Positions 1 through 30,494 of a stretch of DNA of 64,000 nt are shown here, one piece after another (the stretch's first letter is position 1; the number at the start of each line of letters is the position of its first letter). A model generated the notes under the pieces. The model did no database searches. It had not been told where the DNA came from and saw only the letters and a program-made list of their open reading frames with translations. The position numbers were made by a program, and so were the translations under genes. This DNA comes from an uncultured Gammaproteobacteria bacterium (lineage in GTDB: Bacteria > Patescibacteriota > Microgenomatia > UBA8517): contig CAZRJH010000003.1 of the NCBI GenBank assembly GCA_964600575.1, forward strand, positions 17,640 to 81,639, given 5' to 3'.

Positions 1-175
1 TCAACGATGCGAACCGTACCGGCTCCTTGCCCACTTTGCGAGTAACACTCGGACGCTCCCCGCGCCGCAAGGAAACCATGCCCCGCCGCCGCATTTTGGG
101 CGACAACCAACGCCGCGTCATTGGCGACCCCGGGGACGAGTAATCCCTCTTCGTGAGACTCACACTTAACGTGTG
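1..175 (+). ncRNA. GC-rich (~60-65% GC) non-coding segment in an AT-rich genome with no ORF of 60 aa or more; possibly the 3' portion of a structured RNA gene truncated by the window edge (identity unresolved)
   Basis: Strong compositional contrast with downstream DNA, no long ORF on either strand, and a hairpin plus T-run immediately downstream; no confident match to RNase P, tmRNA, SRP or rRNA conserved blocks by eye. Confidence 0.3.
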
Positions 176-180
176 ACAGA

Positions 181-207
181 GCAGGTGGCCTGCAGAGACT
201 TTTTTTT
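181..207 (+). terminator. Putative intrinsic terminator (hairpin gcagg-tgg-cctgc followed by an 8-T run)
   Basis: 5-bp GC stem with 3-nt loop at 181-193, T8 at 200-207; the 6-nt spacer between stem and T-run is longer than ideal. Confidence 0.35.
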
Positions 208-277
208 ATAGTCCTGTCAGGCCGCCTGCTCAAACACCACATTTTTAGCATTTATCCTTTATTTTTTAAAACTATAT

Positions 278-1696
278 ATGGAAAGAGGAAAAAATTTCGC
301 AGTTGTAAACGGTCTTGCCATAGGCGAAGAAAGCAAAGGCAACACTGTTCAGGCACTAGTTAGAGAACTAAGTGCTCATACCGTTTGGCGCTCGGGCGGT
401 TGGCAAGGCGGCCATCATATTATTCACGACGACGGTCGCGAAATGGCCCTAAGCCATTTTGGAGCAGGAATTTTCGAAGGAGCAGACACATACCTCAAAC
501 ATATGGTTATTAGCCCGGTAGAACTTTTTGAAGAATCAGAGATACTCCGCGAACTGGGTATCGATAAACCCTTAAATCACATATATATAGACGAAACTTG
601 CTTGGTTACAACTCCGTTTCATAGATCGATAAGTAGGTTTAGGGAAATACTTAGGGGAGATAACAAGAAAGGAACAATAGGAACGGGTGTGGGGGAAGCC
701 GTAAGGGATTCGAGTGATCCCGAGCTAGCCATAAGAGCATGTGAGTTGGGTGACAAAATTTTGATATTAAGAAAAGCAGAAAATATAAGATTATCTAAGT
801 TAAAGATTGCTCAGGATTTACTTGAAAATTACAAAGGAACTCCTCCCCCGGAAGTTTACGAAGAGATGAGCTTTTTGAAAGATAGTTCTCTCACAGAACT
901 AGTTGCCGAAAGCTTTGAAATGTTTTCCGGCATTGCCAGAATTGTGGGGAGCGACCATCTTCAGAAACTGCTAAAAAGAGGAGGATCGGTTGTTAACGAA
1001 GTTTCTCATGGCACACTTCACCACCCCAGGCACGGTTTTTTGCCACATATCACTCAAATAGATCCCACTTCGGCCGATGTTCTAAAAACAATTAAGGCGG
1101 CAAATTACGATGGAAATATTATTAGGCTTGGCGTTGTCAGGTCTTACATAACACGCCACGGAGCGGGTCCTTTGGTCAGTTTTGAGCCTTCACTCGCAAA
1201 CATTTTTGATGAAAAACATAACACTGGAGCCGAGGAGTGGCTTGGTCCTTTTAGAGCTGGTTATTTTGATATTGTTGCCCTAAAGTATGCCGTAGAAATA
1301 GGCGGAGGAAAATCGGCCTATAACGGGCTTTATCTAAGTTTTATGGATTTAGTTGAAAAAAGTAGCGAATGGGGGGTTGTTGAAGCATACGAGTATAAGG
1401 GTAAGCCTACCAATCTCAGCGAATTTTTCGATATATCAAACGGGCAAATTAGAGGCATAAAATTTGAACATGATAACGGCGAAACACATACCAAGCGACA
1501 AATGGAGCTCACAAAACTTCTAAACGAATGTAGGCCAATACTAACCAAGCTCAAAGCAGGCGGCGGTCAAAGTTTAGACAAGGTTTTTTTGAACTATGTA
1601 ACACAAAAGCTGGGCATACCAGTTGTGGGTATAGCTCGCGGCCCTAAAGTTACTCAAAAAGAATTTTTCCCTGCCTGGAAAAATGTAGTTAAGTAA
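278..1696 (+). CDS. Adenylosuccinate synthetase (PurA) family protein, highly divergent
   Basis: N-terminal P-loop-like AVVNGLAIGEESKGN (compare VVLGTQWGDEGKGK); SGGWQGGHH (compare YQGGHNAGH); KGTIGTGVGEAV (compare GTTGRGIGPAY); RHGAGP (compare RVGAGPF). The Arg-rich IMP-binding loop TTGRRRRTGW is replaced by AEEWLGPFRAGYFD. 472 aa versus about 430 typical. Confidence 0.6.
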   Translation: MERGKNFAVVNGLAIGEESKGNTVQALVRELSAHTVWRSGGWQGGHHIIHDDGREMALSHFGAGIFEGADTYLKHMVISPVELFEESEILRELGIDKPLNHIYIDETCLVTTPFHRSISRFREILRGDNKKGTIGTGVGEAVRDSSDPELAIRACELGDKILILRKAENIRLSKLKIAQDLLENYKGTPPPEVYEEMSFLKDSSLTELVAESFEMFSGIARIVGSDHLQKLLKRGGSVVNEVSHGTLHHPRHGFLPHITQIDPTSADVLKTIKAANYDGNIIRLGVVRSYITRHGAGPLVSFEPSLANIFDEKHNTGAEEWLGPFRAGYFDIVALKYAVEIGGGKSAYNGLYLSFMDLVEKSSEWGVVEAYEYKGKPTNLSEFFDISNGQIRGIKFEHDNGETHTKRQMELTKLLNECRPILTKLKAGGGQSLDKVFLNYVTQKLGIPVVGIARGPKVTQKEFFPAWKNVVK

Positions 1697-3491
1697 TTTC
1701 TTCCGATAGATCGGGCAAAAACACTTTATTCAAGAACAAGACGGAAGCCAAATGTCTATAGCCGTTATCCCAAAAAGCACTTCTGTAATCAATGATTTTA
1801 CCTAAAGGAGGCTCGGTGTTTTTGTCTTCCGGATAAAGTCTTCTGTAGCCTTTATGCATAAGTCTATATTGCAAGGTGTCTATCTCCAGCTGTCTCAAAA
1901 GACTTCTTCTGATATTTTCTTTGCGGCCGCCAAACTTAGAAAGATCCAGATATAAATTAAAGACATCGGTTCTAACTTTGTTTATTTCTTCGTTTTCTCC
2001 CACCCATATCCCACCAAAGATAAAGTGTATCTGCGGTAGTCCGACAACCTCGATAGCTGCGTTATCGGGAATTTCTTTCAGCCCGTATTTACCACTCTCA
2101 TCCGAAGTCCAGTATTCCAGGACCTTGTCTACTTTTCCAAGTTCGGGTAAACGTTCTTTTATTCTTGCCAGCATTTTTTCTCTTTGTGTAAAATCAGCGT
2201 TAGGTCTAAAAAATATAGCCATATCAAAGTCTCCCTTTTGGTTTGCGTAGCCTTTTATCTTGGATCCAAAAACCAAAACAAACGGGAAAATTATATTTTT
2301 TAACTCGTTGTCGGCATTAATTTTTTCGGCAATTTGTACCAAAAACGCACCTTCGTCTTCAACAAAACCTTGAATATTAACTGGCTCGGGTTGTCTAACA
2401 TCGACAGCGTTTCCCCTGAAATAGCCAAGCCGTATAAAGTGGAACATGGCTCTTTCCGCTTCCGCCTTTTCAGTGAACGAACCTGATTTTGTCAGTTTTG
2501 TTAACACGCCACGGGCTTTATCTGCTAGTGTTTTGGCTTGTTTACCGTCGCTTTTAGCTAATGTTTCAACCGATTTGATAACTGCTCTAGTTCCTGGTGT
2601 GCCAAAGCTAAAAATTTCCTTTAAGGGGGCTTTTTTGTTAATCAAAAAAACAGACAACAGACTCGAAACTTCCTCATAAACCGCGTCCAGCTCCATGTCT
2701 TTTTTCCAGTCGGCTCTTTTCCTGGAAATCCGCTTGCTTTCGGCCAATCCGGGTTTGTATTTATTTTCAACATAACTTATTTGGGAATGCAGATAATCTT
2801 TAATTTCATCTATGGTTGACATCTCTTTTGCTTGTGATGGCTTTTCCCCTAGAAGCTTGCCTAAGCCGGCGTTTTGAGCAACTTTGGATATCTTTTGCCA
2901 GGAAACGTTGTCAAAAAGACCCAGTGCATTTGCAACCAACGAGCCTTCGGTCATTGATTCGATAAGCTCTTTGTCACCGGAGTTAAATTCCATTATTTGA
3001 ACAATATCCGTTTGAGAGATGATGCCTCGATCAAGCAGGGGAAAAATCAAGTGCGCGGCTTTTCTTGTTCTCGGGGGATTACCCATGCCGGGCTCTAGTA
3101 CATCGCCGTCATCAAAATCGCCGCGGGCATTGCTGTCAAAAAGCAGCCTAATAAAACCCTCTCTTATTGCCTCCGTTGTTTTTTGAGATGTCGGGGAAGG
3201 GATTTCTTTAATATCGGGTAAAACTTCAAATGGCAGGTACAAGATGATTCTGGCATTATTCTCATCGCGAGAAAGAAAACTTCCCAGCCTTTCATAAAAA
3301 ATATCTTTATTTTTACCTTTGACAGCCTCGTCCAGGAGCTCGGACAGTTCTCGCCTTTGAGATGCCTCATGCCATATTCTGCTGGGGAGTGGGGAAGAAT
3401 CATTCCCGGCCGAGGCGAGATCTTTCGCGAGGCTTCCCAAAACTGCTAAGCCTTTGCCGACACCTGCTTCTTTATTTTTCTTTCTTTCCAT
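1689..3491 (-). CDS. Large Pol-beta-superfamily nucleotidyltransferase-domain protein; ~385 aa unknown N-terminal region, NTase core, helical C-terminus
   Basis: hG[GS]-x11-DxD motif VFGSKIKGYANQKGDFDMAIFF resembles OAS/cGAS/SMODS-type minimal NTases. ATG at 3491 sits 7 nt after a consensus TATAAT. The ORF stays open upstream to TTG at 3527, so 1689..3527 is the alternative. Confidence 0.5.
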   Translation of the reverse strand: MERKKNKEAGVGKGLAVLGSLAKDLASAGNDSSPLPSRIWHEASQRRELSELLDEAVKGKNKDIFYERLGSFLSRDENNARIILYLPFEVLPDIKEIPSPTSQKTTEAIREGFIRLLFDSNARGDFDDGDVLEPGMGNPPRTRKAAHLIFPLLDRGIISQTDIVQIMEFNSGDKELIESMTEGSLVANALGLFDNVSWQKISKVAQNAGLGKLLGEKPSQAKEMSTIDEIKDYLHSQISYVENKYKPGLAESKRISRKRADWKKDMELDAVYEEVSSLLSVFLINKKAPLKEIFSFGTPGTRAVIKSVETLAKSDGKQAKTLADKARGVLTKLTKSGSFTEKAEAERAMFHFIRLGYFRGNAVDVRQPEPVNIQGFVEDEGAFLVQIAEKINADNELKNIIFPFVLVFGSKIKGYANQKGDFDMAIFFRPNADFTQREKMLARIKERLPELGKVDKVLEYWTSDESGKYGLKEIPDNAAIEVVGLPQIHFIFGGIWVGENEEINKVRTDVFNLYLDLSKFGGRKENIRRSLLRQLEIDTLQYRLMHKGYRRLYPEDKNTEPPLGKIIDYRSAFWDNGYRHLASVLFLNKVFLPDLSEEIT

Positions 3492-3498
3492 GGGCACG

Positions 3499-3527
3499 AT
3501 TATAGTCTTTTCGAGCTCAAAAGTCAA
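3499..3527 (-). promoter_or_regulatory. Consensus sigma70-type promoter TTGACT-17-TATAAT driving a leaderless transcript of the NTase gene
   Basis: Minus strand reads TTGACT tttgagctcgaaaagac TATAAT cgtgccc ATG; -35 at 3522-3527, -10 at 3499-3504. Confidence 0.55.
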
Positions 3528-3624: not shown

Positions 3625-4065
3625 TTAGGAAAACGAAAGTTTCATCTTTCTCACGACCTTAATCTTGCTGGAAGGAATGTCGTTTCCAATGAAACCGTCT
3701 TCATAAAACATGATGAGCTCGCCGCCGCCGTCGTATTTGCCGTTTTTTAGACGCCTGGCTTCCACATGCCAAGACTCACCTGCGGGGTAAGCCTGTTCAA
3801 CGACAAATTCTGCATTCTCTCGTGACGGATCAGTCCCGCTTATAACTTTTTCGTAAAAGTCCAATTTGGGAAAGTTTCCGTGCTCGCGATAATAAGCGAG
3901 TTTTTCCTCGTCCGTGTAATGAATAAGGAATGTGGTTCCCGATTCTCTGCCTACATGAACTATTTTATTTTCCACGTCTTCGATTCTGTGGTGCCTGCCG
4001 TGAACAAACCATTCCGACATGAGCACAAAACCTTGGCGCAGAGTGGCTTTCGAGGGCTGTCTCAT
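3625..4065 (-). CDS. Hypothetical protein, ~146 aa, no TM segment, no recognised domain
   Basis: ORF on minus strand; ATG at 4065 is preceded by AAAGAGG 6 nt upstream. The longer ORF to 4125 starts at TTG inside the promoter region. Confidence 0.45.
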   Translation of the reverse strand: MRQPSKATLRQGFVLMSEWFVHGRHHRIEDVENKIVHVGRESGTTFLIHYTDEEKLAYYREHGNFPKLDFYEKVISGTDPSRENAEFVVEQAYPAGESWHVEARRLKNGKYDGGGELIMFYEDGFIGNDIPSSKIKVVRKMKLSFS

Positions 4066-4135
4066 ATAACCTCTTTTTAATTTAGGGTGCACAATTATAT
4101 TAAACCCAAAAGTAGAATTAGTCAAGATTATAGGT

Positions 4136-4141
4136 TATAAT
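4136..4141 (+). promoter_or_regulatory. -10 box TATAAT placed 6 nt before the ATG of the 4148 gene (leaderless arrangement)
   Basis: ggtTATAATatcgatATG; weak -35 candidate TAGAAT 17 nt upstream. Confidence 0.4.
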
Positions 4142-4147
4142 ATCGAT

Positions 4148-4975
4148 ATGACCGAAAAATTTTACGAGCAGGACAAAGACTATGCCCACGCCTGTGCAAA
4201 CTTGCTTCACGACCTTCACAGGGAAGGGGTTTTAAGTGTCAACGATTTACAAAAGTTCGGTAACGACCAAATAGAGGAGTTGGTCTTAAGAATTCACAAA
4301 AACGGATTCCCCGCGAGGACCTCCAAAATGAAACTCGGCAATCACGATGAAAAAATTCAAACTATTTTTGCCTCCGATATTGTACCGGCATCGGAAACAC
4401 CCGATAAAAAAGAAATAACTGCTTTTGTATCCGACTTTTTGCAGTATATACGCTCAATAGGCTACGACGAGGTTACGGGCGCTTTGGTCTATGGCAGTCT
4501 TTTGGACAAACGGAAAAAGCCCAGATCCACAAGCGATTTAGATATAACACTCTTGGTGAGTAGCTCCTCGGGAGCCGTGCATTTGGAAAATGCATGGCTC
4601 AGAAACCCCAACTCGGAAGTGGGTTCAGGTGATATACCTACCGAGTCAAGATACTATGACCTAACTGAAGATGCATACAAATTTGCAAAATTAAAACACC
4701 CTAAATTTGCAGACAGAGAGTTTTCTATAAATAACGTATTAAACAAAGAACTTTTCAATTATCGCATGGACCCTTTTGATAAAAAAGAAGCTCCCTGGTG
4801 GCTATATTCAACGGGAATATTTGCCGTGGGCGGTTTTCCTGGAGTTTCGGAGGCAGCACTTAATAATACTCTGCAAAAAGCACTAAAGTCTAAGTGGTTG
4901 GCAGAACTTAAACAAAGGACCATTAACGATATCAAAAAAGATCTGGATCATAATTTTGGAAAAATGGGGAAATAA
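4148..4975 (+). CDS. Nucleotidyltransferase-domain protein of the kanamycin/lincosamide NTase (ANT/MNT-like) type
   Basis: GALVYGSLLDKRKKPRSTSDLDITLLV matches the hG[GS]-x12-DhD Pol-beta fold signature (compare KNTase YGSLARGE..SDIDLLV); 275 aa. Confidence 0.55.
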   Translation: MTEKFYEQDKDYAHACANLLHDLHREGVLSVNDLQKFGNDQIEELVLRIHKNGFPARTSKMKLGNHDEKIQTIFASDIVPASETPDKKEITAFVSDFLQYIRSIGYDEVTGALVYGSLLDKRKKPRSTSDLDITLLVSSSSGAVHLENAWLRNPNSEVGSGDIPTESRYYDLTEDAYKFAKLKHPKFADREFSINNVLNKELFNYRMDPFDKKEAPWWLYSTGIFAVGGFPGVSEAALNNTLQKALKSKWLAELKQRTINDIKKDLDHNFGKMGK

Positions 4976-4996
4976 ACTGTTTAGGCAGGGTCATGA

Positions 4997-5776
4997 TTAA
5001 TTTTTTGGCCAATAGGTTTTGGCCGGGTTTTTGAGGTTTGCGTCGCTGTGTTCAGTTGTGTGAATAACAACAGGAATCAGAGTTGGACTCACCCCCGCGT
5101 AAGTATCTGTGTCCAGATAAGAATTGCAGGACATAAAATAAACTCCACCATAGCGCGCAATGTTTCCTGTTTTTACATTTGAAACTTGAGAAATTAAAGT
5201 ATTTGCTAAAATTTCTTCGTCGTTTGCACCATTTATAGCTAGATTAAATACTCCGTCTTCACTAAAAACTCTTCCGTGAGCATTGAAAACGGCTATTCTT
5301 TTGCCGTCTTTTGCTAAGTTATGAAGCACAGCAAGCGCCTCGAGTGAGTCTTTGCAGTTTGTTTCTATTGCCGTTCTCCTTATCCTTGCAAGAGATTTTG
5401 TTAAGCAAAAAGGAGCGTTGATTGTAAGGATTTGTCTGTTAATGGTTTTTTTAGAATAAATATCGTTCAGAGTAGTTGCTTTTTCATCCGCTTTCTTTAT
5501 ATCTTCGGTTAAGTCGTCAACTGTTGTAAAAAGGTCATATTTGTAGGCAGTGCCAAAAAAATAAGAAACAACATCAGGAATGTAGACAAAATTTCTGTGC
5601 AATGGTGTTTTGTTGGTCTCGGAAGGTAATTGTATAAACAAGTTTTTACTCATTTCTTGCTTTTTAGCCATCGAAAAGTCGGCCTCGGCTGAATAACTTT
5701 TGTTCTGCCACGGGCCTGCGCCTAGGCACGAACTAAGTGCAAATCTTTGTTGAGAATAAATTGTAGCTTCAAACAT
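4997..5776 (-). CDS. Hypothetical protein (259 aa)
   Basis: Long ORF; ATG at 5776 sits 6 nt downstream of a consensus TATAAT; no recognised motif. Confidence 0.5.
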   Translation of the reverse strand: MFEATIYSQQRFALSSCLGAGPWQNKSYSAEADFSMAKKQEMSKNLFIQLPSETNKTPLHRNFVYIPDVVSYFFGTAYKYDLFTTVDDLTEDIKKADEKATTLNDIYSKKTINRQILTINAPFCLTKSLARIRRTAIETNCKDSLEALAVLHNLAKDGKRIAVFNAHGRVFSEDGVFNLAINGANDEEILANTLISQVSNVKTGNIARYGGVYFMSCNSYLDTDTYAGVSPTLIPVVIHTTEHSDANLKNPAKTYWPKN

Positions 5777-5939: not shown

Positions 5940-8630
5940 GTGTTGAATATATTTTCTAAACTTTTGGATCTAAATCAGAGAGAAGTCGACCGCATCAAAA
6001 AAATAGTAGAAAAAGTTAACGCTTTAGAACCCAAGACAAAAAAACTAAAAGATTCCGATTTTTCCAAAAAAACTCAAGAATTTAAAAAGAGATTGGAAAA
6101 AGGTGAAACTTTGGAGTCGATACTACCCGAAGCCTATGCACTTGTAAGGGAAGCGTCCTACAGAATTTTAGGCAAGAGGCATTACGATGTACAGCTTGTT
6201 GCCGCGGTTGCCTTGTTCGAAGGCCGTGTTGCCGAACAAAAAACAGGAGAAGGTAAAACTTTGTCTGCTGTTCCTGCACTTTATTTACGCGCTTTAACTG
6301 GGCAAGGAGTTCATTTGGTTACCGTTAACGATTATTTGGCCCGTCGTGACGCGGGTTGGAATGCTCCGATTTTTCATCTTTTAGGTCTAACCACGGGTGC
6401 AATAATCCAGGAAACAAAATCTTTTGTCTACGACCCAAAGTTTTCCGACTCCAGCCACGGTGACGAACGCTTGGCACATCTCAAACCGACAGAAAGAAAA
6501 GAAGCATATAAATCCGACATTTTATACGGTACCAATAACGAATTCGGATTTGATTATTTGCGCGACAACATGGTTAACGCCTTATCCGAGATGGTTCAGC
6601 GCGGACATTATTTTGCAATAGTAGACGAGGTGGACTCCGTACTTATCGACGAGGCAAGAACCCCTCTAATTATTTCTGCCCCCGATACCGAGCCCACAAA
6701 AAAATATTACGAGTTTGCATCTTTAGTCGAAAAACTTAATCCAGATACAGATTTTAAAATCGACGAAAAAGCAAAAAGCGCAACTTTAACCGAAACGGGA
6801 ATAACAAGAGTAGAAAAACTTTTAGGAATAGACAATCTTTACGAAAAAGACTTCGACAGTATTCATCATATAGAAAACGCATTACGCGCAAAAACTCTTT
6901 ATTTAAGAGATCGTGACTATGTAGTTAAAGATAATCAAATAACTATAGTAGACGAATTTACGGGGCGTCTTATGGTGGGCAGACGCTGGAGCGACGGACT
7001 CCACCAAGCCGTGGAAGCAAAAGAAAATGTAACTATTCAGCAAGAAAGTAGGACGCTGGCAACTATTTCTTTCCAGAATTATTTTAGGATGTACGAACAT
7101 TTGTCGGGTATGACGGGTACTGCCTCAACCGAGTCGGAAGAATTTAGAAAGATTTATAAGCTGGAAGTTATCGTTATACCCACCCACAGACAAATGGTAA
7201 GAATTGACAAAAGCGACATGATCTTTAAAACCTTGCGCGGAAAATACGGAGCGATTGTAGAAGAAGTAGCAGAAAGAAGCGAAGCTGGGCAACCGGTTCT
7301 TATTGGTACCACCTCCATCGAGAAAAACGAAATTATTTCCGAATTTCTCAAACGCAAGAAAGTTCCACACAATGTTTTAAACGCCAAAAATCACGAAAAA
7401 GAGGCCGAGATTATTGCCGAAGCCGGTAAACCGGGGGCTGTAACAGTTGCTACCAATATGGCAGGCCGCGGTGTTGATATCGTTTTGGGCGGTGCTATGC
7501 CCGACAGAAAAAACGGGGAAACAAACGAAAAATACGAATCCAGTCGTGAATATAAAGATTGGCAAAAAATTCATAATCAGGTACTCGATGCAGGCGGGCT
7601 TTATGTAATCGGAACCGAACGCCACGAAGCACGTCGCGTTGATAACCAGTTAAGAGGTCGTTCTGGTAGGCAGGGCGACAGCGGAACTTCCAGATTTTAT
7701 CTTTCTTTGGAAGACGATCTTATGAGAATTTTCGGCGGCGAGCAAATATCGGGAATTATGGACAGACTTAATTTGCCCGAGGACCAACCGATAGAAAATT
7801 CCTTAATAAGTAGGGCAATCGAACAAGCCCAGGTTAAAGTAGAAGGTTTCCACTTTGACATCAGAAAACGACTAGTTGAGTTTGACGATGTGGCCAATCA
7901 ACAAAGAGATATTGTTTATAAACTACGAAGAAGAATCCTTGAATCAACCGATGTTAAAGAAGAGGTTTTAGAAAAACTCCATCATCAGCTGGAAAAAACA
8001 CTTTTGTTGGCAACTGGGGTAGAAGACGAAAAAGTAGATGACGATCAACTGGCGGTAGGTCTTGCCGAAATGGTACCTTTTGACGACGACTCCCTTAAGC
8101 GTATTAAAGGCGAGATCCAAAAACAGGAAAATAAACTGGAGTTTTTGAAGAGTGTTCTCAAAGATATTTACACAGCCCGCGAAAAAGATTTGGGAGAAAA
8201 GGTTATGCGGGAGGTAGAAAAGTATGCATATTTAGGGGCAATAGATCATCTTTGGATGGATCATATAGACCACATAGACGATCTTCGGGAAGGTGTAACT
8301 CTTAGGGCATACGGCCAAAGGGACCCCTTGGTAGAGTTTAAAAACGAAGCATATAGGCTTTTCGAAACCTTAATAGATAAAATAGACGAAGAGCTTTCTC
8401 ATAGGATATTTAGAATAGGCGTTGCTATGCCCCAAAGCGAAATCCCCTTAAATCTTGCAAGGGAAAACTTGGACAAAACCGACCTAACGGGGCTTTCGGG
8501 TGGTGCCGACGAAACCGCAAAATCAGGAGCCAAAGCCTTTGATAAATCCAAACTTTCCAGAAACGACCCCTGTTGGTGCGGCAGCGGCAAAAAGTGGAAG
8601 AAGTGCCACTACCCCAAGCTTCCCGCTTAA
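5940..8630 (+). CDS. secA: Preprotein translocase ATPase subunit SecA
   Basis: DEAD-motor Walker A (AEQKTGEGKTL) and Walker B (VDEVDSVLIDEARTPLIIS), then GRGVDIVLGG and LRGRSGRQGDSG; C-terminal zinc finger CWCGSGKKWKKCH; 896 aa. Confidence 0.95.
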   Translation: MLNIFSKLLDLNQREVDRIKKIVEKVNALEPKTKKLKDSDFSKKTQEFKKRLEKGETLESILPEAYALVREASYRILGKRHYDVQLVAAVALFEGRVAEQKTGEGKTLSAVPALYLRALTGQGVHLVTVNDYLARRDAGWNAPIFHLLGLTTGAIIQETKSFVYDPKFSDSSHGDERLAHLKPTERKEAYKSDILYGTNNEFGFDYLRDNMVNALSEMVQRGHYFAIVDEVDSVLIDEARTPLIISAPDTEPTKKYYEFASLVEKLNPDTDFKIDEKAKSATLTETGITRVEKLLGIDNLYEKDFDSIHHIENALRAKTLYLRDRDYVVKDNQITIVDEFTGRLMVGRRWSDGLHQAVEAKENVTIQQESRTLATISFQNYFRMYEHLSGMTGTASTESEEFRKIYKLEVIVIPTHRQMVRIDKSDMIFKTLRGKYGAIVEEVAERSEAGQPVLIGTTSIEKNEIISEFLKRKKVPHNVLNAKNHEKEAEIIAEAGKPGAVTVATNMAGRGVDIVLGGAMPDRKNGETNEKYESSREYKDWQKIHNQVLDAGGLYVIGTERHEARRVDNQLRGRSGRQGDSGTSRFYLSLEDDLMRIFGGEQISGIMDRLNLPEDQPIENSLISRAIEQAQVKVEGFHFDIRKRLVEFDDVANQQRDIVYKLRRRILESTDVKEEVLEKLHHQLEKTLLLATGVEDEKVDDDQLAVGLAEMVPFDDDSLKRIKGEIQKQENKLEFLKSVLKDIYTAREKDLGEKVMREVEKYAYLGAIDHLWMDHIDHIDDLREGVTLRAYGQRDPLVEFKNEAYRLFETLIDKIDEELSHRIFRIGVAMPQSEIPLNLARENLDKTDLTGLSGGADETAKSGAKAFDKSKLSRNDPCWCGSGKKWKKCHYPKLPA

Positions 8631-8657
8631 GCAAAAATACCGACAGCACGACCTTTT

Positions 8658-20339: not shown

Positions 20340-20378
20340 AAAAGCCCCCGTTGGAGAAATTCCTAGGGGGCCTGGCGG
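20340..20378 (-). terminator. Intrinsic terminator for the minus-strand nucleosidase gene; hairpin overlaps its stop codon
   Basis: gccccc-N16-gggggc stem; the minus-strand reading is followed by TTTTTTGTGG. Confidence 0.5.
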
Positions 20379-21109
20379 GCAAAATACATAAGTACAAATC
20401 GGAGTGCAACATCGGCGCTGTTTTCTGCAGCTTCCTGATAATGAGATTTGTCTTTCTCACCGTCTGCGTAATCGCTCACGCTTCTAACGGCGATAAAAGG
20501 CACACCATTTTCGGAAGCAACTTTGGCAGCCCAATAAGATTCCATATCCACGACACTGCCGCGGAAGTTTGTTCGGATCACCTCGACTGTTTCCGGGTTG
20601 GAAACAAATACATCGGAAGTAACGCCGCTTTCGGGAATTCCTACATTGGTTAAGCCATGCGCAATTTGGACAAAATCGTCGTTGATATCAATAACATTTC
20701 CGCTTCCAAGATCGTACCAACTGGTTGGAACAACGGTGTCACCGATAGCAAGACTTTCATCAATCCCTCCCGCTATGCCGGAAAAAACTATTGCCTCAAC
20801 ATCAAAATTTTCAATTGTCTTTTGAGTTGAGTTTACGGCGTTTTCGGGACCGACACCTGTTGAGAAGATTACTATTTCGTAACCTCTAAGATCGGCAACG
20901 GTATATAGGATTTCGTCCTCTAAGCACTGAGAAATGATATCCACTCTGCTTTCGACCGCTTGTCGTTCCATCCCAAAGGCGGTAGCCACAAAAATATGGC
21001 TTTGGCCGCTTATTTCGGGGTAACAGGTATTTTGGTTTCCGTTGGAAACGCAACCCGTTAAAAGAACCAAAGAGACAAGTAGTGCAAAGATATGTTTGGA
21101 CACAAACAC
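20363..21109 (-). CDS. PNP/UDP-1 family nucleosidase (MTA/SAH-nucleosidase-like) with lipoprotein-type signal peptide
   Basis: FSGIAGGI, VDMES, VRSVSD motifs (MtnN/Pfs-like); N-terminal hydrophobic segment ending LLTGC (lipobox); GTG start. Confidence 0.6.
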   Translation of the reverse strand: MFVSKHIFALLVSLVLLTGCVSNGNQNTCYPEISGQSHIFVATAFGMERQAVESRVDIISQCLEDEILYTVADLRGYEIVIFSTGVGPENAVNSTQKTIENFDVEAIVFSGIAGGIDESLAIGDTVVPTSWYDLGSGNVIDINDDFVQIAHGLTNVGIPESGVTSDVFVSNPETVEVIRTNFRGSVVDMESYWAAKVASENGVPFIAVRSVSDYADGEKDKSHYQEAAENSADVALRFVLMYFARQAP

Positions 21110-24185: not shown

Positions 24186-25286
24186 GTGAGAAATAAATTT
24201 TTTAAATATAAAGGCGGCAAGCTCCAACTCCCCGTATTTTTCCCCGACGCAACACGGGGTGTTCTAAAATCTTTAGATAGTTTAGATATCAAAAATACAC
24301 AAACTCCCGGAGTTCTCGTAAATACTTATCATTTATGGCACGGCCTTCCTCAAAAAATACTTAACGAATTTGGAGGGATTAGGCAATTTATGAATTGGCA
24401 GGGTGCTGTTATATCGGATTCGGGAGGATTCCAGGTTATGTCTGTTATTAAAAAGGGTGTCACCAAAGGAAAAATAAAAGACGAAGGAATTGTTATGTAT
24501 CCCGGTAAAAACAGAAGGTTGGTTTTTAGCCCCGAAGATTCAATAAGATTTCAGATGAACCTGGAAACGGATATGGTTGTGGTTTTAGACGATTTTACAG
24601 ATCCCGACGGAGATAAATCGGATGCTACAGAATCCGTAGAAAGAACTGTTATGTGGGCCGAAAGGTCAAAAAAAGAATTCGAAAAAATTTGCAAAAAGAA
24701 GGGTTTATCCAAAGAAGAAAGGCCATATCTATTGGGAGTAGTTCAGGGTGGGGAGTTTGCCGATGTTCGCAAAGATTGTGCAGTTAGACTAGGGAGAATA
24801 GGCTTCGACGGCTTTGGTTGGGGCGGTTGGCCAATAAACAAAGAGGGAAATTTGGATTTGGAAAGCGCAAAAATTATTTCGGAAAACGCACCCGAAGATT
24901 ATTTACTTTATGGTTTGGGAGTGGGTAAGCCCGAAGATATTGTTGAGAGCGTTAAATTGGGATTTGGAATTTTTGACTGTGTTTTGCCCACCAGGGACGG
25001 GAGACACGGCAGATTGTATGTTTTTGATGCTCCCGATATCTCGCAAATAAATTTACAAAACTCTGACTTCTATCATTTTTATGATGCAAAAAAAGAGAAA
25101 CATTTAACCGATAAGTCGCCCGTAAGTACTGCTTGCGATTGTCTTTTGTGCACAAATTACTCACGCGGCTATCTGTCACATTTATTTAAAATAGGAGATG
25201 TAACCGCTATGCGTTTGGCTTCTATTCACAACCTGCGTTTCTACTCAATTCTCATGGAGAAGCTTAAAGATAGTTCTCCATTCTAA
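24186..25286 (+). CDS. tgt: tRNA-guanine transglycosylase (queuine tRNA-ribosyltransferase) family
   Basis: SDSGGFQV, LVFSPE, DCVLPTRDGRHG, Zn motif CDCLLC..H. Confidence 0.75.
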   Translation: MRNKFFKYKGGKLQLPVFFPDATRGVLKSLDSLDIKNTQTPGVLVNTYHLWHGLPQKILNEFGGIRQFMNWQGAVISDSGGFQVMSVIKKGVTKGKIKDEGIVMYPGKNRRLVFSPEDSIRFQMNLETDMVVVLDDFTDPDGDKSDATESVERTVMWAERSKKEFEKICKKKGLSKEERPYLLGVVQGGEFADVRKDCAVRLGRIGFDGFGWGGWPINKEGNLDLESAKIISENAPEDYLLYGLGVGKPEDIVESVKLGFGIFDCVLPTRDGRHGRLYVFDAPDISQINLQNSDFYHFYDAKKEKHLTDKSPVSTACDCLLCTNYSRGYLSHLFKIGDVTAMRLASIHNLRFYSILMEKLKDSSPF

Positions 25287-26604: not shown

Positions 26605-26798
26605 TCCCACTGGAGTTAGGTCTTTGTCCTTTTTGGGAATGTAAGCCCTAACTTTATTTTTGTTTGTACATTAACAAACCAAGAATATAAAAAAACAAGT
26701 TAAAAGGTTTTCTCCTTTTGGTGCCGACGAAAGAGACCAGCTCTGAAACATTAGAGATGGCATCTTTTAATCGGCATCAAGAAATATGGAAGGAGCCT

Positions 26799-28847
26799 AT
26801 GAAAGTTAACAACCGTTTGTTTTGGGTTCTTTTGGTGTTCGTCGGTGCGCTTACATTTGCTTCCATAGCATGTGGTTCCAGCGCTCCCGAGACTCCTCAA
26901 GGTCCCACTGTAACACCCGGTCCAATGCCCACACCTACGCTGCGTGCATACGTGCCACCCCCTGATGAAGGGCCAAAGTACGGAATTTCGCAGATATCTA
27001 CGGGTGCTGGAAACATTTCCAACGAGGTGATCGGTAGCCGCATGAACCAGAACGCTTTTACAATTGGTTTGGCGGTCGGATTGATCATTATCGCTATTGG
27101 AATCTGGTTTGTCCCCGCTAACTGGTGGTTAATTGCACTTCTTGTTGTTTCGTATGTTGGCGGAAATATCACCAACAACAGTATCCAAAGTGGGATACCG
27201 CAGAAACAATCCGAAGTTGCGCAGGTACTGCAAAATGACTCGATCACGAACGGCATGAGTTTCGCCGCCCGGGCTCAAGCTCAAAATAACCAGTATATTT
27301 ATGCAACCATCAAGCAAATCGGGATCGACAGCGTTCCTTGCCAAGGCGGAGATCACGGTTATCGCGATTTCTGTGGACAAAACACCCCCTACTACAATCA
27401 CTGGACCACAGACTACCCATGTGGTACTGATGAAGACGGGGACACAATCTACTGTGATGAAGATCACTACGAGAATTGGCTGGACCGCATCGACAAATAC
27501 TGGATCGTTTTGGACACCAAGGCTAAATACCTTGATGAACAGATCTATCATCAGAAATGCATGTCACCCGACGGTAAGACGGTTTCCGAATGTCATCGCG
27601 ATGAGTACGGTAAGATAGATGACAAAAGTAATCCGGTTTTCTACCTCCACGGCGACTGGCGTGCCCCTGAAGATGTAAACGCTCACAGACAGTCCAGTTC
27701 ATCGATCTTTGGCACAAGCTATGTTGATATGGGACAGGTGAATAACCGTGTACCCCTCGACTGGGCCAATGTCCGAGACAATAGCGTGTCCTGCAACGGA
27801 ACCGATTACTGCGGCAGCAACTTTGTTGCTACGGTGGTTGGTCCCTACCTTAACTACGGTTTTGCCTCTGGATCACAGCTTTTCGAACCGGTGACGAACC
27901 ACTACCAAAAGCTATTACAGCTGGCGGTTTTGCCAACTCCCCACGGCGCGGCTTTCCAAGAGAAAGATGCGTTCGGCAAAGACTCGGTTTTACAGACCAG
28001 TCTCTATGGAGTTGATGCCGACTTGCCACTTCACCTCGACCCTGTGGCTATCGTCGGATCTTGTATTTCTCAGGACAACATCGCCGGCTTCTCGGCTTAT
28101 GCGATGCAGTTCCAGGGGAGTTTCGGACCGATCAAGCAAGGAAGTGCGCGTTGGTATATTGTTTGCGACAGCATCGTTGCACAAATGAGTGGAATGCAAA
28201 ACACGGTTACAGCCATCAAGGCCTACGAACGTGATCCCAATGTGCACGGCAAGTTCTCTATGCCCAAAAATCTGGTCGACATTGTTATATCCGTAAGTGA
28301 GGATGGGCAGTGTATAACCGGACGCGGTATGGAAACCGGTATGCCTGCAGGCAACGACCAAGTCCAAATGGACATGCTCGAATCAATTCCTGGCGGCCAG
28401 TGTGTCCCGTTCACGAAAGAAAACGTGTTCGGTACATTTACCTCTGGCTATACGGGAACGACATCAACCCAAACCAATGCGAATGTCGCCGAAGGAAGCG
28501 TAAGTACTTCTACCATTCTGAGCTATCAGTACTCTGACATGACTCAGGCGGGCGGTACGATCGGCATCCTCTACGCGACAGACCCGAACTATGTGCCCCC
28601 CGATCCGTCGGCTCCGGGATGTGTAATTCCAAAGGCTGACCACAAGGGTTTTGTTCGATATGATCCTTGTAACTACTTCTACCAACAGTCGGATGTTCAA
28701 ATTAATCAGGACGGATACGACTTGATTATGCGGGATATTCAGACCAAGGCGGTCGATTATGTGGATGTAATCTGGGGTTGGGTTTGGCTCGTCTTGGCTG
28801 TGGTCATACTGATCTTATCAGCCGGCGGGAAACTGCAACTTTTCTAA
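26799..28847 (+). CDS. Large secreted/membrane protein (~682 aa) with Cys-rich ectodomain, N-terminal signal/lipobox-like sequence, TM hairpin and C-terminal TM anchor; GC-rich island gene 1
   Basis: SD GGAAGGAG 5 nt before ATG 26799; FASIACGSS signal; hydrophobic segments at ~aa 105-150 and the extreme C-terminus (WGWVWLVLAVVILIL); many Cys/Asp/His (DEDGDTIYCDEDHYENW); ~52% GC. Confidence 0.5.
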   Translation: MKVNNRLFWVLLVFVGALTFASIACGSSAPETPQGPTVTPGPMPTPTLRAYVPPPDEGPKYGISQISTGAGNISNEVIGSRMNQNAFTIGLAVGLIIIAIGIWFVPANWWLIALLVVSYVGGNITNNSIQSGIPQKQSEVAQVLQNDSITNGMSFAARAQAQNNQYIYATIKQIGIDSVPCQGGDHGYRDFCGQNTPYYNHWTTDYPCGTDEDGDTIYCDEDHYENWLDRIDKYWIVLDTKAKYLDEQIYHQKCMSPDGKTVSECHRDEYGKIDDKSNPVFYLHGDWRAPEDVNAHRQSSSSIFGTSYVDMGQVNNRVPLDWANVRDNSVSCNGTDYCGSNFVATVVGPYLNYGFASGSQLFEPVTNHYQKLLQLAVLPTPHGAAFQEKDAFGKDSVLQTSLYGVDADLPLHLDPVAIVGSCISQDNIAGFSAYAMQFQGSFGPIKQGSARWYIVCDSIVAQMSGMQNTVTAIKAYERDPNVHGKFSMPKNLVDIVISVSEDGQCITGRGMETGMPAGNDQVQMDMLESIPGGQCVPFTKENVFGTFTSGYTGTTSTQTNANVAEGSVSTSTILSYQYSDMTQAGGTIGILYATDPNYVPPDPSAPGCVIPKADHKGFVRYDPCNYFYQQSDVQINQDGYDLIMRDIQTKAVDYVDVIWGWVWLVLAVVILILSAGGKLQLF

Positions 28848-28867
28848 AAATTCATCAAGGAGAAAAT

Positions 28868-29791
28868 ATGAATCAGCTCAAAAAGCTTTTTCTTTTCTTT
28901 GCGGCGGCAACAATTTTGCTGTCCGCCTGCGCTCCATCGGCCCCATCGCCGGTGAATACTGTCCTTCCTGGTGTAGATCTCACAAAGAGTATCCAGGATT
29001 TCAATGCTTGGTACACCAAAACGGTCAACCAACAGGCTGATCTTCAGGTCAATGTACTCGCCTTTGACGGCGTGTACTCCAAGTATTACTCGACAATGAG
29101 TGCGCTGGTTGCCAACAACGCGAACTGCTACGTGAATGTCAAAAACACAGAGCAACCGCTTCTCGAGGCAACTTTTAACCCGAATCAAGATCAAGGCACG
29201 CTCATCAACGCGCTGGTCACCAACACCATTGGCGGCGAGCTGGCGACAAGTATTTGTGCCGAAGGTAACGAGAAAATTGCGAATTTCGTGATCAGCGGAC
29301 GCCAGGAAGTCTACGATGCCTACATCAAAATGCAGGAATCGGCAGTGTTCTTCGTTCGCGACCTGAACAACACCATTCCTGTCAAAGTCGGCAACGATTT
29401 CCTGCAGACCTATGGCGACCCGAACATTGCGGAGCAGAAAATGCGTGACGCCGGAATTCCCGGACTCACAGATTTTCAATTTCCTCCCAACGAGCAACTC
29501 TTCTATGTGATGCCCGGCAATAAGGAAATTTGTGATTACTACATCACAGGCGCATTCAAGCAATATCTGCCTCCTCCGATCTTGAACAAGTTCTATGGGC
29601 ACGACGAATCGCTTATGCGACGCTACGGCGCCCAGTGGACACCTCCACTCGGTGGGTCGAACGGATCTTGCAAGTTGTTCGCTCAGGCGGCGCTTGATCA
29701 AATCATGACCCCGATCATGAATCAAAATGCCTCCAACGCCATCAATACCGGCGTTGACAACGGCAATGAGATTCCGACGGTAACCCCATAG
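28868..29791 (+). CDS. Putative lipoprotein (~307 aa); island gene 2
   Basis: SD AAGGAGAAAA before ATG 28868; signal peptide ending LLSAC (lipobox); GC-rich codon usage. Confidence 0.5.
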   Translation: MNQLKKLFLFFAAATILLSACAPSAPSPVNTVLPGVDLTKSIQDFNAWYTKTVNQQADLQVNVLAFDGVYSKYYSTMSALVANNANCYVNVKNTEQPLLEATFNPNQDQGTLINALVTNTIGGELATSICAEGNEKIANFVISGRQEVYDAYIKMQESAVFFVRDLNNTIPVKVGNDFLQTYGDPNIAEQKMRDAGIPGLTDFQFPPNEQLFYVMPGNKEICDYYITGAFKQYLPPPILNKFYGHDESLMRRYGAQWTPPLGGSNGSCKLFAQAALDQIMTPIMNQNASNAINTGVDNGNEIPTVTP

Positions 29792-29807
29792 GTTAGGAGA
29801 GAATATC

Positions 29808-30494
29808 ATGAACCTTTTAACAATCGGATTTGCAGTGACCGGCCTTCTGGCCGCATTCTCGTTCATTGGCTCGAACCTCCGGGGAACTTTCCTGGAATCG
29901 GACGGTGACGGTTTGCAACCTTTGGGCTGGGGAGCGGTGTTTTACTTCCTGAGCTTTGCCGTGGCACCACTTGATGTGGCCGCCGGCTACTTGCTCAGTG
30001 GACTCGGAATGCTGTTTGTGGTCTACGGACTTTTTGTCCTCATTCCGGACCCGATCACCGACTTCCTTCTGCACCCTGTCGCAGGCATCGTCTACGCTTT
30101 GGTCGCCGCGGTTATTTTCCTTTCAACCCCGCATGCCATGGCATTGACAGCCGGATATGTTCTGCGCCTGACCCTGCCGACCTCCGCCGCCGCTATTCTG
30201 GCAACCTTCGCCGCCCTTTCGCTTACAACCTCGTCCTTCAAGGACAAGCTTGAACAGCAGGTTGGTGGTGTTGTTTTGCTTTTGGCTGGCATCGTGTTCG
30301 GCATCCTGGCACCCTTTGCAGGGACCGTTATTCTCGCAGTGACTGCGGCCGGGCTCGGCGGACTTCTGTTCGCATTGGGCTTATTGGTCGCCATTGACGA
30401 CGACACGGTCGAGCGTTTCTTGACCCCTGCGGGTCTTATCGCCTATTTGCCCCTTCTGGGATTGGCGGTATACATCGCTCGCATGCTGTTCTAA
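29808..30494 (+). CDS. Polytopic membrane protein (~7 TM, 228 aa); island gene 3
   Basis: SD AGGAGAG before ATG; Gly/Ala/Leu-rich hydrophobic helices throughout. Confidence 0.5.
   Translation: MNLLTIGFAVTGLLAAFSFIGSNLRGTFLESDGDGLQPLGWGAVFYFLSFAVAPLDVAAGYLLSGLGMLFVVYGLFVLIPDPITDFLLHPVAGIVYALVAAVIFLSTPHAMALTAGYVLRLTLPTSAAAILATFAALSLTTSSFKDKLEQQVGGVVLLLAGIVFGILAPFAGTVILAVTAAGLGGLLFALGLLVAIDDDTVERFLTPAGLIAYLPLLGLAVYIARMLF

Follow-up and report, generated by a model that had tools for sequence, protein, structure and literature searches.

A PurA-like protein of candidate phyla radiation bacteria with a predicted new specificity, and the gene module in which it lies

Can a protein that has the complete fold of adenylosuccinate synthetase (AdSS, the purA product), and that retains its machinery for phosphoryl transfer, do something other than make adenylosuccinate? 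The question is raised by a 64,000-nt stretch of DNA from an uncultured bacterium assigned by GTDB to the Patescibacteriota (contig CAZRJH010000003.1, positions 17,640 to 81,639), which we call the window. Close to its left end lies an open reading frame (ORF) encoding a highly divergent PurA-like protein that has relatives both in other bacteria of the candidate phyla radiation (CPR) and in phages. The AdSS family is usually seen as having two functional classes, PurA serving the formation of AMP and phage PurZ serving that of 2-aminoadenine. Judged from its sequence and its surroundings, we think, with slightly better than even confidence, that the window gene encodes an active enzyme of the AdSS fold that is not an AdSS, but a GTP-dependent ligase with a new second substrate that acts as part of a protein module.

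Fold and active site of the PurA-like protein

The features of the gene that enter the argument are as follows.

278–1696, plus strand: PurA-like protein of 472 amino acids, ATG to TAA, placed by its sequence in a third clade of the AdSS family
323–343, plus strand: P-loop GEESKGN (GDEGKGK in E. coli); Lys20 (= K16) kept, Glu17 in place of the catalytic Asp13
395–415, plus strand: GGWQGGH; catalytic His46 (= H41) kept, Gln43 in place of Asn38
1229–1270, plus strand: remodeled aspartate loop AEEWLGPFRAGYFD (GATTGRRRRTGWLD in E. coli); W321, G323 and F325 in place of T301, R303 and R305
1337–1348, plus strand: SFMD (TKLD in E. coli); guanine-specificity Asp357 (= D333) kept, an aromatic residue in place of K331

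A first-pass annotation, made from the letters of the window, had given exactly these boundaries for the ORF. The motifs that it quoted are all present, at residues 16–22 (GEESKGN), 40–46 (GGWQGGH), 132–140 (GTIGTGVGE) and 293–298 (RHGAGP), and the loop that it singled out lies at residues 318–331. The Pfam family PF00709 matches the protein with 142 bits (E = 2.5e-41, cutoff 27) and E. coli AdSS finds it with E ~1e-20, while its identity to canonical PurA is 22–27%. An AlphaFold model calculated from 58 relatives has pLDDT = 93.5 and pTM = 0.92. The top structural matches of this model in Foldseek are bacterial AdSS structures (E = 1e-29, TM-scores of 0.75 to 0.82, ~22% identity), and its TM-score to 1cg1 is 0.81. 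The structures of the short archaeal PurA, PurZ and PurZ0 rank well below these, those of PurZ and PurZ0 with E = 1e-14 to 1e-15. Membership of the PurA superfamily is far above chance, and beyond doubt.

The protein fails all the NCBIfam PurA equivalog models, which included NF002223 and TIGR00184. It scores 113, 94, 74, 69 and 46 bits against cutoffs of 402, 396, 700, 445 and 368 respectively. The NCBIfam model for PurZ, NF038379, gives 18.3 bits against a cutoff of 300. By these sequence scores the window protein is neither a canonical PurA nor a PurZ. It had been proposed that the protein is about 40 amino acids longer at its C-terminus, and this is incorrect. The additional length arises from internal insertions at residues 214–221, 272–277, 377–391 and 403–414, of which the last two are the chief ones, partly balanced by deletions, and the C-terminal guanine-binding G-P motif (residues 455–456) aligns with G416-P417 of the E. 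coli enzyme.

We have compared the active sites position by position, using the numbering of E. coli PurA and an alignment of that protein with 83 relatives, of which 70 are core members. In the E. coli enzyme the ligands of the IMP 5′-phosphate are N38, T129, T239 and R143 of the partner subunit. Even PurZ has this contact between the nucleotide phosphate and an arginine of the other subunit (PMC8342488). In PurA-type enzymes R303 contacts the ribose of IMP and the aspartate, and the tip of the Thr-rich loop, strictly conserved between the two PurZ enzymes that were compared, contacts the aspartate (PMC8342488). A survey of 2026 found the 'essential Asp13' conserved in 99% of canonical PurA and serine at this position in 100% of phage PurZ, and left 'other PurA homologs' uncharacterized (PMC12884076).

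The residues of GTP binding and phosphoryl transfer are retained in the core family. G12, K16 and D333 are present in 70/70 sequences and H41 in 67/70. At the C-terminal guanine site G416 is found in 70/70 and P417 in 68/70, and the window protein has A453-R-G455-P456 in place of S-x-G-P. Position 13, Asp in E. coli, is Glu in all 70, and Glu17 of the window protein might act as the base. The chemistry of PurA, i.e. the GTP-dependent phosphorylation of a carbonyl oxygen, is probably common to the window protein.

The positions that bind the other substrates are different. N38 has become Gln in 65/70 core sequences, T129 Ile or Val in 67/70, R143 Glu or Asp in 49/70, V273 His in 66/70, and in every one of the 70 Q224 has become His and K331 Tyr, Phe or His. 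In the loop, T300 is replaced by Asp or Glu (61/70), T301 by Trp (70/70), G302 by Leu (67/70), R303 by Gly (70/70) and R305 by Phe (67/70), so that the family-wide motif [DE]-W-L-G-x-F-R stands in place of the canonical aspartate loop TTGRxRR. None of T300, T301, R303 and R305 survives in the window protein, which has E320, W321, G323 and F325. Its IMP ligands are reduced to T259 (= T239), the other positions being occupied by Q43, I134, ~E149 and H244. On this alignment two of the ligands of the IMP phosphate, T129 and the trans-acting Arg143, are lost. The same signature is present in 20/20 cluster-linked proteins, from both branches of the CPR. The aspartate-loop stretch is the sole part of the model with low confidence (pLDDT = 61 at residues 311–320). 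The replacements at the substrate positions are themselves fixed across the 70 relatives, which indicates purifying selection on a rebuilt pocket rather than decay of the gene.

The alignment of the loops made by eye in the first-pass annotation was essentially correct, since HMMER and MAFFT both pair W321, G323, F325 and R326 with T301, R303, R305 and R306 of E. coli. Replacement of the Arg-rich loop is real and family-wide. The name 'IMP 5′-phosphate loop' that was given to it does not hold, because the loop mainly contacts the aspartate and the ribose 2′-OH (PMC8342488). The proposal of a PurA paralog with altered substrate is borne out to the extent that the substrate sites are remodeled and the catalytic machinery is not, with changes that are fixed across the family. 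In summary, the window protein shares with canonical PurA (EC 6.3.4.4, PDB 1ade and 1cg1) the fold, the order of the sequence blocks, the P-loop Lys, the catalytic His, the guanine Asp and the G-P motif. It differs in having the altered loop, in the changes of Q224, V273, T129, R143, K331 and D13, and in the absence of purine-gene partners.

The comparison with the phage enzymes PurZ and PurZ0 (PDB 7odx, 6fm1 and 7vf6) leads to another pattern. These too are paralogs in the PurA family with altered specificity and phage relatives. However, PurZ has Ser13, is of the short archaeal type, keeps the aspartate loop and the trans-Arg and uses ATP (except PurZ0), whereas in the PurA-like family position 13 is acidic (Glu or Asp), the proteins are of the long type, the aspartate loop is gone and the Asp for guanine specificity is retained.

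A third clade of the AdSS family and its gene module

An exhaustive profile search over 1.84 billion representatives gave 150 full-length proteins scoring at least 398 bits, 146 of which were new; the latter are representatives at 50% identity. The features described above recur in these 146 proteins. K16 is present in 146, H41 in 145 and D333 in 145; H273 is found in 144, W301 in 135, Q302 in 134, F305 in 128, R306 in 143 and Q38 in 143. Arg143 occurs in just nine. D13 is kept in 139 and Q224 in 133. The signature of the clade is thus Q38, H273, an aromatic residue at 301, G303, a hydrophobic residue at 305 and R306, with neither Arg143 nor Lys331. It is common to the 146 representatives, all the cluster-linked proteins, gp273 of mycobacteriophage I3, P0230 and the window protein, which has Q43, H294, W321, G323, F325, R326, ~E149 and F355 at these positions (P and L numbers are our handles for proteins and loci). 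The phage and other proteins of the larger clade have Asp13, Gln224 and W-Q-G. The window protein and its closer relatives have Glu13, His224 and W-L-G, and would form a Microgenomates subclade within the larger clade marked by H273 and the W-Q-G-x-F-R loop.

Pairwise scores agree with this division. The window protein gives 85–104 bits with canonical PurAs, those of E. coli and P0083, and 159–444 bits with members of the clade including I3 gp273. P0083, a canonical PurA in our match list that is 45% identical to the E. coli protein, scores like E. coli PurA and served as benchmark. From these sequence data we conclude that the AdSS family holds a large third clade, apart from canonical PurA and phage PurZ. 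With at least 150 clusters at 50% identity, in which the GTP chemistry is kept and the pocket for the second substrate is entirely different, a third class is indicated.

Phages carry 235 records of PurA-like proteins, of which 201 are from Mycobacterium phages. Their identity to the window protein is 33%, higher than that of E. coli PurA, and PHROG 1211 matches the window protein with 167 bits. The Bixzunavirus protein (I3 gp273, PHROG 1211) has 33–34% identity and the residues Q38, H273, W301, G303, F305 and R306 that place it in the same clade. The clade takes in the 'PurA-like adenylosuccinate synthetase' genes of Cluster C1 mycobacteriophages, together with genes of Rhizobium and Vibrio phages. 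A scan of IMG/VR with patterns of the core family gave no relatives. In the literature that could be searched, the clade is met only as a name given in announcements of phage genomes and as an outgroup, itself unexamined, in trees of PurZ, and nothing was found linking it to vWA, kinase-fold or nucleotidyltransferase partners or to the CPR. Its members are currently annotated as adenylosuccinate synthase, and PHROG 1211 carries a PurZ-style name. Metabolic reconstructions of CPR bacteria may therefore wrongly assign the conversion of IMP to AMP to these genes, and the phage annotations may wrongly imply Z-DNA.

Two members of the family, P0047 (residues 479–700) and P0055 (residues 475–701), have an extra C-terminal domain of ~220 amino acids. 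It has no Pfam match and no free-standing homolog in any locus that was fetched. Comparison by hhalign with the kinase-fold protein described below gave a probability of 0.15%, and that identification was rejected. A more distant PurA homolog, P0082 (L006, JAXOUH010045792.1, 10001–11242), has altered catalytic residues, Thr13, Ser41 and Leu224. It lies in a phage-like run of small ORFs beside COOH-NH2 ligase, GATase and Amidoligase_2 genes; the setting recalls the base-hypermodification clusters of phages.

The window gene had been viewed as a possible lone salvage enzyme. It is instead a fixed part of a multi-gene module, with partners that have von Willebrand factor A (vWA), protein-kinase and nucleotidyltransferase folds, none of them from the purine pathway. 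We call the partners A (vWA fold), B (kinase fold), C and D (nucleotidyltransferase). The parts that fall within the window are listed here.

3–141, plus strand: C-terminal 46 codons of an upstream gene of the C2 type, with an Arg-rich tail, cut by the window edge; stop codon at 139–141
1689–3527, minus strand: protein D, ~600–612 amino acids, running toward the PurA-like gene and sharing 8 nt with its 3′ end
2142–2282, minus strand: minimal nucleotidyltransferase core of D (Pol-beta/MNT type), residues 416–462, with invariant G421-S422 ... D433-x-D435

Protein A has ~370 amino acids (370 in P0164). By sequence it matched nothing in a profile search of the PDB, nor in Pfam or NCBIfam. Its predicted structure (pLDDT = 91.7) has the vWA/integrin beta-I fold (Foldseek E = 2e-8, probability 1.00), and an invariant D-x-T-G-S motif resembling a MIDAS is consistent with this. 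A is encoded upstream of the PurA-like gene in 12/12 GTDB loci that have upstream DNA, and beside it also in L001, L002, L004, L008–L010 and L028. The window starts 277 nt 5′ of its PurA-like gene, so the position of A would fall beyond the left edge. P0164, an A protein, is encoded on a contig of 145,977 bases, equal in length to that of the window protein. The order A, C2, PurA-like in L001, L013 and L014 is the same as the remnant in the window suggests; the translation of 3–141 is 80% identical over 30 amino acids to the C protein of L009 (tblastn). Protein C exists as two types with a common, weakly SAM-like N-terminus (weak Pfam matches), and a profile search of the PDB gave no match to it.

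Protein B has ~270–320 amino acids and a protein-kinase fold (CK2, E = 3e-8) in which the Asp of HRD and the Lys of the catalytic loop are replaced and the Lys of VAIK is not conserved. It is present in 9/12 of the GTDB loci with upstream DNA.

Protein D is adjacent to the PurA-like gene in the window, in L001, L002 and L004, and in 14/14 loci of GTDB species representatives that have downstream DNA. Its homologs at this position in L001, L002 and L004 are 28–41% identical, and the PurA-like gene is also adjacent in 3/3 cases where D is 26–27% identical and the genome is of Parcubacteria type. Moreover P0198 (1129 amino acids) and P0199 (1102 amino acids) are end-to-end fusions of the PurA-like protein with D, and the fusion locus retains B and A upstream. 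The assignment of D as a nucleotidyltransferase comes from several scores. Pfam Polbeta gives 25.1 bits against a cutoff of 26.9, the D ortholog of L010 clears the NTP_transf_2 cutoff (23.6 against 21), and the closest solved relative of the D profile is HI0073 (1no5, E = 6e-4). The closest named family is MntA, at 25 bits against a cutoff of 60. With the minimal nucleotidyltransferases HI0073 and MntA protein D has in common the motif G-S ... D-x-D as well as some 45 core residues of the Pol-beta fold. It differs from them in its size of ~600 amino acids, including ~400 N-terminal and ~150 C-terminal residues outside this core, and from the MNT-HEPN type in that no HEPN partner of D was seen. 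The true start of D may be the ATG at codon 13 (nt 3491).

The module is not restricted to bacteria. In mycobacteriophage I3 the order is gp270 ('kinase'), gp271, gp272 and gp273, the last being PurA-like, and the kinase-fold and vWA-fold genes upstream of gp273 match the CPR module. Comparison by hhalign shows gp271 to be homologous to A (98.4%, E = 6e-15), including the D-x-T-G-S motif, and gp270 to B (97.7%, E = 1.3e-12), with the same HG-for-HRD loop. This version (gp270–273) lies in a system amenable to genetics. The PurA-like gene of Rhizobium phage TM30, gp019, is immediately preceded by gp018, a homolog of A (98.4%, E = 4.5e-15) with the motif D-F-S-G-S-M. Homology of TM30 gp016 to B was not detectable. 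An A-type protein and a PurA-like gene occur together in the phage records of 201 Mycobacterium, 10 Rhizobium and 6 Vibrio phages. In phages of Listeria, Salmonella, Acinetobacter and Staphylococcus the homologs are of other kinds, and the A-type protein was not found. Unlike the CPR module, the phages have neither protein D, for which no phage homolog was found, nor protein C. The vWA-fold partner is found in all the lineages examined, i.e. the CPR, mycobacteriophages and Rhizobium phages. What is conserved at a minimum is the pair of vWA protein and PurA-like enzyme; the kinase fold is frequent, and D and C are additions in the CPR.

Two further loci carry parts of the module. L027, a 620-kb contig with 64% GC, has NrtR-like, B-like, NUDIX and PurA-like genes and a protein with an A-like region, a rearranged module in a GC-rich genome outside the CPR or in a giant phage. 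The protein with the A-like region (6780–8525, 581 amino acids) has a weak match to Hint (intein-like), and its C-terminal region is similar to A. L030 (uncultured phage LR745208.1, 485 kb) has a B-like and A-like pair at 6863–8645 with no PurA-like gene within 8 kb, so that the kinase-fold and vWA pair can exist without an adjacent PurA-like gene.

Some genes recur at the borders of the cluster. An NrtR-like gene (degenerate NUDIX plus winged helix) lies directly upstream in L001 (5738–6394), L013, L016, L019, L024 and L026 (206–874), inside the rearranged cluster of L027, and downstream in L021. The CPR copies lack the catalytic Nudix box, as in ligand-sensing repressors. Separate genes for NUDIX, phosphoribosyltransferase, phosphoribosyl pyrophosphate (PRPP) synthetase and isochorismatase proteins flank some clusters (L008, L009 and L027), and a phosphoribosyltransferase-like and a cytidyltransferase gene lie a few genes upstream in TM30. 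The NrtR-like, NUDIX and PRPP-type neighbors, with the TM30 genes, give a hint of a connection with the metabolism of ADP-ribose, NAD or ribose phosphate.

We also considered a known defense system. A PADLOC scan of six cluster proteins gave only the generic likeness of a kinase fold (PD-T4-6) and of a minimal nucleotidyltransferase (PDC-S09), at E = 1e-7 or weaker, and no match to the PurA-like protein, A or C, and the identification was rejected.

The reaction of the PurA-like enzyme

The PurA-like enzyme very probably does something other than make AMP. Most likely it is a GTP-driven ligase that joins a purine-type acceptor to an amine other than aspartate, and it does so in a protein complex. 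Our confidence in any specific substrate is much less than in this general statement. In the reaction that we propose, the enzyme would first bind GTP-Mg. The gamma-phosphate would then pass to a carbonyl oxygen of the acceptor, a lactam of the 6-oxopurine type, in the way that PurA phosphorylates IMP, with Glu17 as base and His46 and Lys20 assisting in this half-reaction. In a third step the non-aspartate amine would displace the phosphate. The acceptor may be a nucleotide moiety that the nucleotidyltransferase D supplies or tethers, and the enzyme would probably operate in a complex organized by the vWA protein.

The acceptor is probably still purine-like, given that the larger clade keeps Asp13 and Gln224 and that T128 and T239 remain. 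Exchange of the Thr and Arg residues of the pocket for Trp, Gly and Phe makes it hydrophobic and aromatic, which suggests a nucleophile that is neither aspartate nor any dicarboxylate. The loss of the trans-Arg and Thr129 likewise suggests that the phosphate of the acceptor is not a free dianion. Taken with the fused nucleotidyltransferase, the loss of phosphate ligands favors an acceptor that is made or tethered by D. A similar logic is used by TilS and TiaS, where a nucleotide-derived group activates a ring carbonyl oxygen in RNA and is displaced by an amine (lysine or agmatine). The analogy would extend to the activation of the carbonyl and not to the folds, which are unrelated, nor necessarily to RNA as the substrate. 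What would be new is an enzyme of the PurA fold with conserved chemistry, a new specificity and a new, conserved protein context. If a purine nucleotide is indeed joined to a new amine, this would be a new reaction in nucleotide biochemistry, with a possible role as a mechanism of host takeover or symbiosis.

Several points weigh against this reading. The acceptor and nucleophile that we propose are deduced solely from the residues that are lost and kept, and nothing but adjacency and fusion points to a hand-over of substrate by the nucleotidyltransferase. The window protein still has R306, T128, T259 (= T239) and, as a conservative replacement of N38, Gln43, and with these it may bind a nucleoside monophosphate; it may also have an aspartate site of a different build. 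The module is not uniform, since no B was detected within 10 kb in the loci most closely related to the window (L001 and L012–L014). In L008, of Parcubacteria type, the cluster adjoins PRPP synthetase, phosphoribosyltransferase and NUDIX genes and has purL less than 10 kb away, neighbors that would also fit a role in purine metabolism.

A more specific form of the ligase is that the PurA-like protein and the nucleotidyltransferase together build or edit an attached nucleotide. The transferase would install a 6-oxopurine nucleotide through a phosphodiester, on a protein side chain or on another small molecule, and the PurA-like enzyme, with the use of GTP, would put a non-aspartate amine in the place of the purine O6; this amine might belong to a protein and be presented by the vWA partner. 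A phosphodiester-linked nucleotide would explain the loss of the ligands for a free 5′-phosphate. We regard this detailed scheme as unlikely to be correct as it stands. If true, it would be a new nucleotide-based chemistry of modification or signaling common to ultra-small symbiotic bacteria and large lytic phages, with a possible role in host takeover or counter-defense.

Alternatively, the enzyme might be a one-step aminase that converts a 6-oxopurine nucleotide (IMP, ITP, dIMP or similar) into the 6-amino form with ammonia or a small amine, with no need of PurB. Such an activity could serve salvage in the CPR and restore adenine nucleotide pools in phages. It is in keeping with the loss of just the aspartate site from an otherwise intact phosphoryl-transfer machinery, with the retention in the larger clade of Asp13 and Gln224, which contact the hypoxanthine base, and with the nucleotide or NAD-salvage-type genes near members of the phage clade (the phosphoribosyltransferase-like and cytidyltransferase genes of TM30), as well as with the ligand-sensing NrtR-like regulator and NUDIX genes that recur beside the cluster. 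Yet it leaves unexplained the obligatory vWA partner, the dead-loop kinase fold and the fusion to a 600-residue nucleotidyltransferase; no ammonia-generating (glutaminase) domain was detected in any partner, and the loss of T129 and the trans-Arg speaks against a free nucleoside monophosphate as acceptor. We therefore think it improbable that this is the activity.

Could the protein nevertheless be a genuine, if very divergent, AdSS that uses IMP, aspartate and GTP, with another mode of aspartate binding? The PurA fold is complete, the catalytic Lys and His are present and the guanine site is intact, and relatives of the protein are annotated as adenylosuccinate synthase. The L008 cluster lies near PRPP synthetase, phosphoribosyltransferase and purL, and the window itself has a gene of the purine/uridine phosphorylase family. 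Set against this, T300, T301, R303, R305 and R131 have all given way to Gly or to acidic or aromatic residues, which are conserved in their turn, and Q224 and Asp13 have changed. The scores are about one quarter of the equivalog cutoffs, while the canonical P0083 scores like E. coli PurA and unlike the PurA-like family. In addition members of the clade are carried by lytic phages, the hosts of which possess their own PurA, and its partners are the vWA protein, the dead-loop kinase fold and the nucleotidyltransferase, not purB. A genuine AdSS is thus a poor prospect, at long odds in our judgment.

We give a still lower probability to a non-catalytic GTP-binding switch or scaffold in a signaling or assembly module of vWA and pseudokinase proteins. 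The folds of the partners are those of interaction and regulation (that of vWA, with a MIDAS-like motif, and that of kinases, with neither the HRD Asp nor a conserved VAIK Lys), and the substrate-binding residues are lost, both as such a role would have it. But the residues of the chemistry are near-invariant (K16 in 70/70 and 146/146, H41 in 67/70 and 145/146, and an acidic residue at position 13 nearly always), and the replaced loop (W301, G303, F305 and R306) is strongly conserved, as in a working substrate pocket. Finally, an enzyme of PurZ type that makes a 2-aminoadenine precursor from dGMP and aspartate, the analogy drawn in the first-pass annotation, is effectively refuted and can be given hardly any weight, for although the protein is a divergent PurA homolog with phage relatives and PHROG 1211 has a PurZ-style name, it scores 18 bits against 300 and has Glu/Asp and not Ser at position 13, the aspartate loop and trans-Arg are lost, the PurZ structures are more distant, and no genes of datZ or mazZ type were found among the neighbors.

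Hammerhead candidates and other features of the window

The intergenic DNA upstream of the PurA-like gene of the window contains a very stable hairpin.

179–231, plus strand: intergenic hairpin 5′ of the PurA-like gene

The 136-nt region 142–277 in which it lies has a folding energy of −48.8 kcal/mol (z = −9.08), and 0/200 shuffled sequences fold as well. The hairpin may be a terminator, a processing site or a regulator. A similar hairpin precedes a hammerhead-like element in L001 and L013. In the window no hammerhead was found with a covariance model, and just the preceding hairpin is retained.

In relatives of Microgenomates type the gap upstream of the PurA-like gene has the architecture of a type III hammerhead, which ends 4–48 nt before the ATG. 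The order is stem III ending in U-H, the stem I hairpin, CUGAUGAG, stem II, CGAAA and the 3′ strand of stem III. The core of CUGANGA and GAAA and the three stems in type III order are found in these relatives, with an invariant core and covariation in stems I and III. The 3′ strand of stem III (GGG/AGG) overlaps the likely ribosome-binding site. The Rfam hammerhead model gives a full-length match at a permissive threshold, with 23.4 bits that lie below the gathering threshold of 48.5. In an alignment of eight sequences 99.2% of cells are paired and 6/15 pairs have changed on both sides. The observed covariation score was reached by 0/500 shuffles, and slid controls were 28–50% paired. A covariance model finds 19 copies with E = 2e-21 to 2e-6, including 11 that were not used to train it. 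All 19 are on the strand of the cluster and in its intergenic gaps, 14 directly upstream of the PurA-like gene. We regard these elements as candidate type III hammerhead ribozymes. Their positions are given by locus.

L001: 8892–8965
L002: 9941–10001 and 7681–7741
L011: 237–326
L012: 9899–9987
L013: 9920–9997
L014: 9945–10005
L015: 9916–9976 and 7354–7414
L016: 9900–9960
L018: 9915–9993
L019: 9937–9997
L020: 1954–2014
L021: 9915–9975
L023: 8776–8852 and 10619–10679
L024: 9913–9973 and 8285–8364
L028: 3359–3420

Hammerheads were not found in the window, in the loci of Parcubacteria type or in the phages. The literature that we searched contains no report of hammerheads in the CPR. If the candidates are ribozymes, they would be a rare case of bacterial operons processed by ribozymes, in the CPR.

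The remaining features of the window are minor. Just past protein D is a 166-residue ORF (3625–4125, minus strand), followed by a 275-residue ORF with a weak Pol-beta nucleotidyltransferase motif (4148–4975, plus strand). The neighbors at 3625–5776 were considered as members of the cluster and rejected, as they are not conserved with it in any other locus. Neither a tRNA gene nor, at gathering score, any Rfam family is present in the 64-kb window. Among the 20 larger ORFs that were scanned between 8.7 and 36.8 kb, neither purB nor guaB was found. A GC-rich island at 26718–30491 (~0.50, against 0.40 elsewhere) has ORFs of 709, 337, 340 and 228 amino acids, some of them overlapping on opposite strands; three of these four large ORFs were scanned against Pfam and gave no match. 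The sole nucleotide-related genes among the ORFs scanned are those of a PNP_UDP_1 phosphorylase (20366–21109, minus strand) and a tRNA-guanine transglycosylase (24186–25283, plus strand).

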